Under the pieces are notes generated by a model, which saw only the letters and a list, made by a program, of their open reading frames with translations, had not been told where the DNA came from and made no database searches. This document shows, in pieces, positions 51,232 through 51,315 of a DNA stretch of 64,000 nucleotides; the first letter of the stretch is position 1, and every line of letters starts with the position of its first letter. The stretch lies in NCBI RefSeq assembly GCF_003334385.1, contig NZ_QOWN01000003.1; one strand, given 5' to 3'. The translations under genes were made by a program, and so were the position numbers. This stretch comes from Escherichia coli. GTDB taxonomy: Bacteria > Pseudomonadota > Gammaproteobacteria > Enterobacterales > Enterobacteriaceae.

Positions 51232-51315
51232 TCAGGAAAGATAAAAACGGGCGGCAATCAGTGCGCATAAAATAAGGATGATCAGAATGAACTCAAAGCG
51301 ATAACGGCCCACCAT
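51232..51315 (-). CDS. ydgU: 27-aa small hydrophobic protein (YdgU)
   Basis: Hand-found minus-strand ORF MVGRYRFEFILIILILCALIAARFYLS with GGAGGG Shine-Dalgarno 4 nt upstream of the ATG; matches the small protein YdgU as I recall it. Confidence 0.7.
   Translation of the reverse strand: MVGRYRFEFILIILILCALIAARFYLS

Follow-up and report, generated by a model that had tools for sequence, protein, structure and literature searches.

A 27-codon frame between asr and ydgD

The 64,000-nucleotide stretch of Escherichia coli DNA analysed here (the window) carries a minus-strand open reading frame of 27 codons between asr and ydgD, which raises the question of whether so short a frame is a gene and, if it is, what its product does. 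The initial annotation had singled the frame out from the letters, noting a GGAGGG Shine-Dalgarno sequence near its start and proposing that the product is the small membrane protein YdgU. We found that the frame is the known E. coli gene ydgU, renamed samT in 2026, and so no new discovery. It is very probably the second gene of an asr-ydgU operon, encoding a translated membrane peptide that damps RstB-RstA by feedback. The features around the frame are as follows.

51232..51315, minus strand: ydgU (samT) coding sequence, from the sequence, a RefSeq CDS at the same coordinates, NCBIfam matches and purifying selection in frame
51320..51325, minus strand: Shine-Dalgarno GGAGGG, read in the sequence
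51408..51716, minus strand: asr, first gene of the asr-ydgU operon, encoding a periplasmic acid-shock protein, from the ORF list and RefSeq annotation; operon from PMC13425233 and PMC11429745
50311..51132, minus strand: ydgD, downstream neighbour of ydgU, from the ORF list and RefSeq annotation

The frame, its ribosome-binding site and its place were all as first described. Sequence and translation give an ATG start at 51313-51315 (minus strand), 27 codons plus a stop, and the product MVGRYRFEFILIILILCALIAARFYLS; GGAGGG stands 4 nt (TAGT) from the ATG, or 5 nt when counted from the GGAGG core; and both the window ORFs and the RefSeq annotation place the frame between ydgD and asr. The peptide has a basic N-terminus (R4, R6) followed by a hydrophobic stretch from F9 to F24, with a best 15-residue Kyte-Doolittle mean of 3.06, which fits the family's ~26–27 residues and one helix. 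The GTG at codon 2 was considered as an alternative start and ruled out, given that the ATG is invariant in 54/54 distinct homologous peptides, while codon 2 encodes V, L, A or F.

Size alone makes the frame unremarkable, because the window holds 734 ORFs of 20–60 aa by our count. Only three of these 734 have GGAGG placed 4–9 nt before their first start codon, and ydgU is the sole one of the three with both an ATG start and a strongly hydrophobic product. What lifts the frame beyond chance, and what we regard as the decisive evidence, is that it is conserved across species, as described in the next section.

The identity of the gene was established from several directions. The exact peptide of the window is RefSeq WP_000233090.1, "small membrane protein YdgU", which maps to window 51232-51315, and the ydgU CDS of strain CH10268 (WP_000233090.1) covers exactly the same positions with an identical peptide. 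Two NCBIfam equivalog models were matched, each over residues 1–27 of a 27-position profile; the scores were 70.3 bits for NF052476 small_YdgU, whose cut-off is 24, and 74.5 bits for NF011341, whose cut-off is 66. The RefSeq protein and the two models together confirm the proposed name. A comparison with the K-12 ydgU annotation, which the initial annotation had set as its test, gave the same position between asr and ydgD and not a different one: the K-12 MG1655 RefSeq record has an 84-nt CDS there (WP_000233093.1, 'stationary phase-induced protein') that encodes MVGRYRFEFILIILILCALITARFYLS. K-12 YdgU/SamT (b4601; NF052476 small_YdgU) has the same locus, length, neighbours and ribosome-binding site as the gene in the window, and 26/27 residues are identical. 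The sole difference is at residue 21, which is Ala in the window and Thr in K-12 MG1655.

Of 5426 complete E. coli genomes, 5423 matched a 701-nt query spanning the ORF at ≥95% identity, and a CDS was observed between asr and ydgD in every complete entry among the E. coli matches listed. Among those listed genomes the CDS is mostly named "hypothetical protein", with "stationary phase-induced protein" and "ydgU: small membrane protein YdgU" also in use. Ab initio gene callers with a length threshold probably miss an ORF of this size. The earlier expectation that automated calling would overlook the gene probably holds for such callers; it does not hold for NCBI PGAP, which calls the CDS, and NCBIfam has two models for this protein. 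Two strains with irregular matches were also observed, YSP8-1 and ESBL_DR28 (records NZ_CP037910.1 and NZ_CP067250.1, respectively). YSP8-1 has an IS1A element inside the 701-nt asr-ydgU-ydgD query region, while in ESBL_DR28 a 99-nt ydgU query falls in two separate places with no annotated CDS, possibly a disrupted ydgU.

Searching both strands of 50200-52300 against Rfam, at E-values up to 1, matched no family, and we therefore reject a known RNA family as an alternative. A type I toxin-like hydrophobic peptide was likewise considered and rejected, since there is no Rfam family on either strand and overexpression barely affects growth (PMC11429745).

Conservation of the frame as a protein

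The frame is under purifying selection as a protein across species. Eighty species-representative loci were retrieved by way of ydgD, the adjacent gene, and their selection is thus independent of the conservation of ydgU itself. Using tblastn, a YdgU-like frame was found in 78 of these 80 ydgD-anchored loci, on the strand of ydgD and usually ~100 nt upstream of it, which answers in the affirmative whether the frame is conserved in other enterobacteria. The taxa include Escherichia, Citrobacter, Kosakonia, Kluyvera and Buttiauxella and reach as far as Erwinia, Pantoea and Mixta. Across the 78 loci the frame is 25–29 codons long, mostly 26–27, and starts with ATG in 75; a GGAG motif lies upstream of nearly all of them. 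In an alignment of 72 upstream sequences, the only invariant columns are two G residues of this GGAG-type motif.

The pattern of substitution was evaluated in 70 coding sequences, all distinct and all starting with ATG. Variation, as column entropy, is lowest at the second codon position (0.33), intermediate at the first (0.84) and highest at the third (1.31). The pN/pS ratio is 0.33 in the ydgU frame vs 0.97 and 1.90 in the other two; these are raw proportions over 26 codons in phylogenetically related sequences and give a direction instead of a calibrated rate, yet the contrast between frames is unambiguous. Internal stops are absent from the ydgU frame (0/70) and common off frame (65/70 and 34/70). 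M1, F7, E8 and C17 are invariant in these 70 sequences, and R4, Y5, L11, I15 and F24 are nearly so. Of the 54 distinct homologous peptides, 38 have A and 16 have T at residue 21, and the difference between the window and K-12 is therefore at a naturally variable position.

Two further positions differ by lineage. Residue 3 is Gly in Escherichia and Arg in nearly all other genera (R in 47 and G in 4 of the 54 distinct peptides), and residue 23 is Arg in Escherichia and Ser in most genera. These are lineage-specific changes in the charged residues that flank the helix.

Regulatory sequences around asr, ydgU and ydgD

The regulators of the operon lie in the same window, with rstB and rstA ~11 kb from ydgU. 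Their coordinates were predicted from a RefSeq strain that is identical to the window over the 701-nt query.

38909..40210, minus strand: rstB, sensor kinase reportedly bound by the peptide, an ORF at the coordinates predicted from RefSeq annotation
40214..40933, minus strand: rstA, response regulator activating the asr-ydgU promoter, an ORF at the RefSeq-predicted coordinates; role from PMC13425233
51334..51362, minus strand: stable hairpin CGGTGCTAA...TTAGCACCG, from RNA fold and alignment
51372..51389, minus strand: GGCGCG-CCCCCT-CGCGCC, the first GC-rich hairpin, which closely follows the asr stop codon, from RNA fold and sequence
51772..51777, minus strand: TATAGT, likely -10 element of the asr promoter, read in the sequence with the assignment inferred
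51820..51833, minus strand: RstA-box match TACATATCGTTACA upstream of asr, an exact match to the consensus TACATNTNGTTACA

The consensus TACATNTNGTTACA reportedly comes from Ogasawara et al. in 2007. The box upstream of asr, called by motif match alone, is the only exact match to it in the 64-kb window, and a gap of 42 nt separates it from TATAGT. When the 78 loci and the window were searched together with the relaxed form TACANNNNGTTACA, 65 of the 79 sequences had a box no more than 700 nt upstream of ydgU. A sigma-70 promoter scan of 50900-52200 found none; activator-dependent promoters would be expected to escape such a scan, so we do not take the empty result as evidence against the asr promoter. 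The scan of 50900-52200 also returned a single minus-strand terminator-like match, at 51411-51429, which spans the end of the asr coding sequence. In published work, asr and ydgU form an RstA-activated operon (PMC13425233), and ydgU expression is driven by the asr upstream region, with negligible promoter activity in the region immediately upstream of ydgU (PMC11429745).

The 92-nt gap between asr and ydgU folds into two hairpins in the window. The one nearer to ydgU, at 51334..51362, is the positional counterpart of a terminator-like hairpin and T-run seen in other genera, where the T-run is followed directly by the GGAG of the ribosome-binding site of ydgU; Escherichia keeps the hairpin with a degenerate T-tract (CCTTTAGC). 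A GC-rich hairpin with a T-run was found at 63 of the 78 loci vs 5.1% of same-strand background windows. It occupies a region about 16–60 nt upstream of the ydgU ATG (L008-L082) and, in all 63 loci, ends 16–22 nt before it. The stems vary by clade at this fixed position and include CGGCGCT/AGCGCCG, CACCCGG/CCGGGTG, CAGCGCCCG/CGGGCGCTG and GGTGCTAA/TTAGCACC. RNAalifold returned no consensus structure from the 72-sequence upstream alignment, because MAFFT put stems of differing sequence and length out of register, and a per-sequence scan for hairpin and T-run with a background control was used in its place.

It is possible, and we suggest it tentatively, that the hairpin upstream of ydgU is a conserved, leaky intrinsic terminator of asr that fixes, and perhaps conditions, the ratio of Asr to SamT and through it the set-point of feedback on RstBA, weakened in Escherichia by loss of the T-tract. 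In its most economical form, the hypothesis is that a leaky asr terminator keeps the amount of SamT low in comparison with Asr, which is very abundant. PMC13425233 raises the question of differential expression of the two genes; its main text makes no mention of a terminator.

The other side of the gene is also conserved. The ydgU-ydgD spacer (window 51133-51231, minus strand, ~100 nt) is strongly conserved across Enterobacteriaceae and Erwiniaceae: among 62 distinct spacer sequences CTATAGT (window 51183-51189, minus strand) is invariant, and a CTCCC block ~20 nt upstream of it is nearly so. The window scan found no terminator-like site between ydgU and ydgD. The invariant -10-like CTATAGT suggests that ydgD has a promoter of its own, and from its sequence the spacer looks like an activator-dependent ydgD promoter.

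The order asr-ydgU-ydgD is kept in most of the 80 species (window 50311-51743, minus strand; loci L003-L082). The product of ydgD is a trypsin-like peptidase of the periplasm that has been little characterised, and Asr is likewise periplasmic and rich in lysine; that YdgD and Asr are functionally linked, for instance in the processing of Asr, is speculation. Our search of the ydgD literature found no paper tying ydgD to asr or ydgU.

A further small ORF was observed on the opposite side of asr. This frame of 39 codons (window 51972-52091, plus strand) lies between asr and ynfM. From Met6 on it aligns with NCBIfam NF033695 ('KPN_01571 family', a transporter-adjacent 30-aa protein), scoring 63.3 bits against a cut-off of 35. 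The RefSeq annotation covers just its 23-codon C-terminal part (52020-52091, 'hypothetical protein'), which scores 33.6 bits. Because this shortened form falls below the NF033695 cut-off, the RefSeq start may be too far downstream.

Function of the peptide and the alternatives

Genomic epitope tagging of YdgU reportedly originates with Hemm et al. in 2008. Such earlier tagging is cited in PMC11429745, where GFP-YdgU (the K-12 protein) is found at the cell periphery, and where neither deletion nor overexpression of ydgU gives a growth phenotype at low Mg2+. Ribosome profiling at pH 4.4 showed one of the largest rises in the genome for ydgU, a log2 fold change of 9.22 in ribosome occupancy (PMC10746267). 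The name samT comes from de Fromont et al. (NAR 2026, PMC13425233), who reported that acid induction of the asr-samT transcript needs RstA, and that samT alone restores negative feedback on Pasr at pH 5, as does samT supplied in trans from another locus for RstBA feedback. Mutations in rstB and the rstA changes D52A and D52E abolish feedback on Pasr, whereas placing rstAB under a foreign promoter leaves it in place (PMC13425233). In the same study Asr and YdgU modulate RstBA independently of each other, Asr positively and YdgU negatively. The SamT-RstB two-hybrid signal was as strong as that of MgrB-PhoQ, with weaker signals for PhoQ and EnvZ; this mechanism comes from one laboratory's study, and the physical interaction with RstB from a bacterial two-hybrid assay with overproduced fusions. 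The published SamT experiments were all carried out with the K-12 allele (T21), and the window carries A21.

Taken together with the window, these results make the following mechanism very probable. At acid pH, phosphorylated RstA would activate the asr promoter, and at low Mg2+ PhoQP would raise rstAB and so turn on the same promoter. Transcription would then pass the hairpins after asr into ydgU, by what is probably read-through, and the strong Shine-Dalgarno of ydgU would drive its translation. YdgU would be a single-helix inner-membrane peptide with its N-terminus probably in the cytoplasm, since that terminus is basic. It would bind RstB, presumably by contact between transmembrane helices, and this binding would lower phosphotransfer to RstA, giving negative feedback on the inducing system much as MgrB gives on PhoQ.

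The parallel with MgrB, drawn in PMC13425233, is one of function. MgrB is a 47-aa inner-membrane inhibitor of PhoQ and, like YdgU, a small single-helix peptide that is induced by a two-component system, binds the kinase of that system and exerts negative feedback. According to the authors, however, the two share no meaningful sequence similarity (PMC13425233). YdgU is also much shorter, with few residues beyond its helix, and therefore has no periplasmic domain comparable to that of MgrB. By this analogy YdgU works like MgrB but stands outside the MgrB family. A second likeness is the Salmonella UgtS-UgtL operon, which pairs positive and negative modulators of PhoQ much as Asr (positive) and YdgU (negative) are paired in one operon; UgtS antagonises UgtL, whereas Asr and YdgU act independently (PMC13425233).

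We weighed three alternatives to a translated, RstB-directed membrane peptide. The abundance of small ORFs in the window, and the position of this one in a region between hairpins, could fit a frame that arose by chance in the 3' untranslated region of asr or in the spacer between asr and ydgD, with the conservation belonging to an RNA or DNA element and no protein made. That reading is effectively refuted and has next to no probability left: variation follows codon position in the order third, first, second, the low pN/pS ratio is confined to the ydgU frame, stops abound in the other two, both the ATG and the GGAG motif are conserved, and Rfam has no match, to which the published ribosome profiling (PMC10746267) and the earlier epitope tagging cited in PMC11429745 can be added. 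A leader peptide, in which translating the frame would regulate the protease gene ydgD downstream and the peptide sequence would be of secondary importance, is very improbable. It would account for the same-strand position ~100 nt upstream of ydgD in 78/80 species, including asr-less ones, and would agree with the lack of a terminator-like site between the two genes, but such strong selection on amino acids, with F7, E8 and C17 invariant, would be unexpected if the act of translation alone mattered. The -10-like CTATAGT in the spacer suggests a separate ydgD promoter, and samT acts in trans to restore RstBA feedback (PMC13425233), both of which argue against a leader role.

Somewhat less remote, though still improbable, is that YdgU is a real membrane protein for which RstB is not the main or only partner, and which acts on kinases such as PhoQ and EnvZ or joins Asr or YdgD in protecting the envelope against acid. 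The weaker two-hybrid signals with PhoQ and EnvZ (PMC13425233), the tight asr-ydgU-ydgD order across Enterobacteriaceae and Erwiniaceae, and the absence of a single-gene growth phenotype (PMC11429745) are in its favour. Against it, disabling RstB-RstA phosphotransfer specifically abolishes feedback on Pasr, the feedback survives when rstAB is expressed from a foreign promoter, and the RstB two-hybrid signal equals MgrB-PhoQ in strength (PMC13425233). We therefore retain the damping of RstB-RstA by a translated membrane peptide as the preferred reading, and the window is consistent with the published RstBA-SamT account.

Natural losses at the locus were observed in several species. Intestinirhabdus alba (L011:2790-2900) has a ydgU pseudogene that keeps the ribosome-binding site and has lost the start codon and frame, next to a shortened asr, while in Tenebrionibacter intestinalis (L063) asr and ydgU are both deleted beside a ynfM fragment. 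Buttiauxella warmboldiae (L043:2740-2904) is without asr at the locus; ATA replaces the ydgU ATG, an in-frame GTG stands one codon upstream, and the predicted peptide has Val at the otherwise invariant F7. The asr gene is also absent from the locus in Franconibacter pulveris (L022:2680-2900), which keeps an intact 25-codon ydgU directly downstream of an RstA box, a 42-nt gap and TATAGT, the spacing of the E. coli asr promoter. Franconibacter helveticus (L023:2700-2900) likewise lacks asr at the locus and has an RstA box close upstream of ydgU. A ydgU placed under an RstA-box promoter without asr fits a role for ydgU that is independent of Asr, and agrees with the published Asr-independent action of SamT.

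The gene itself has long been annotated in K-12 and is covered by dedicated NCBIfam models; a published function and a new name followed in 2026. As a genuine 27-codon gene chosen from raw sequence among 734 ORFs of similar size, it is a useful positive control for the scan. For those working on RstBA feedback, the analysis yields as a by-product a quantified cross-genus profile of the peptide, with F7, E8 and C17 invariant. It also offers two small leads for that work: the terminator-like hairpin upstream of ydgU, and Franconibacter as a natural asr-minus, samT-plus arrangement at the locus.
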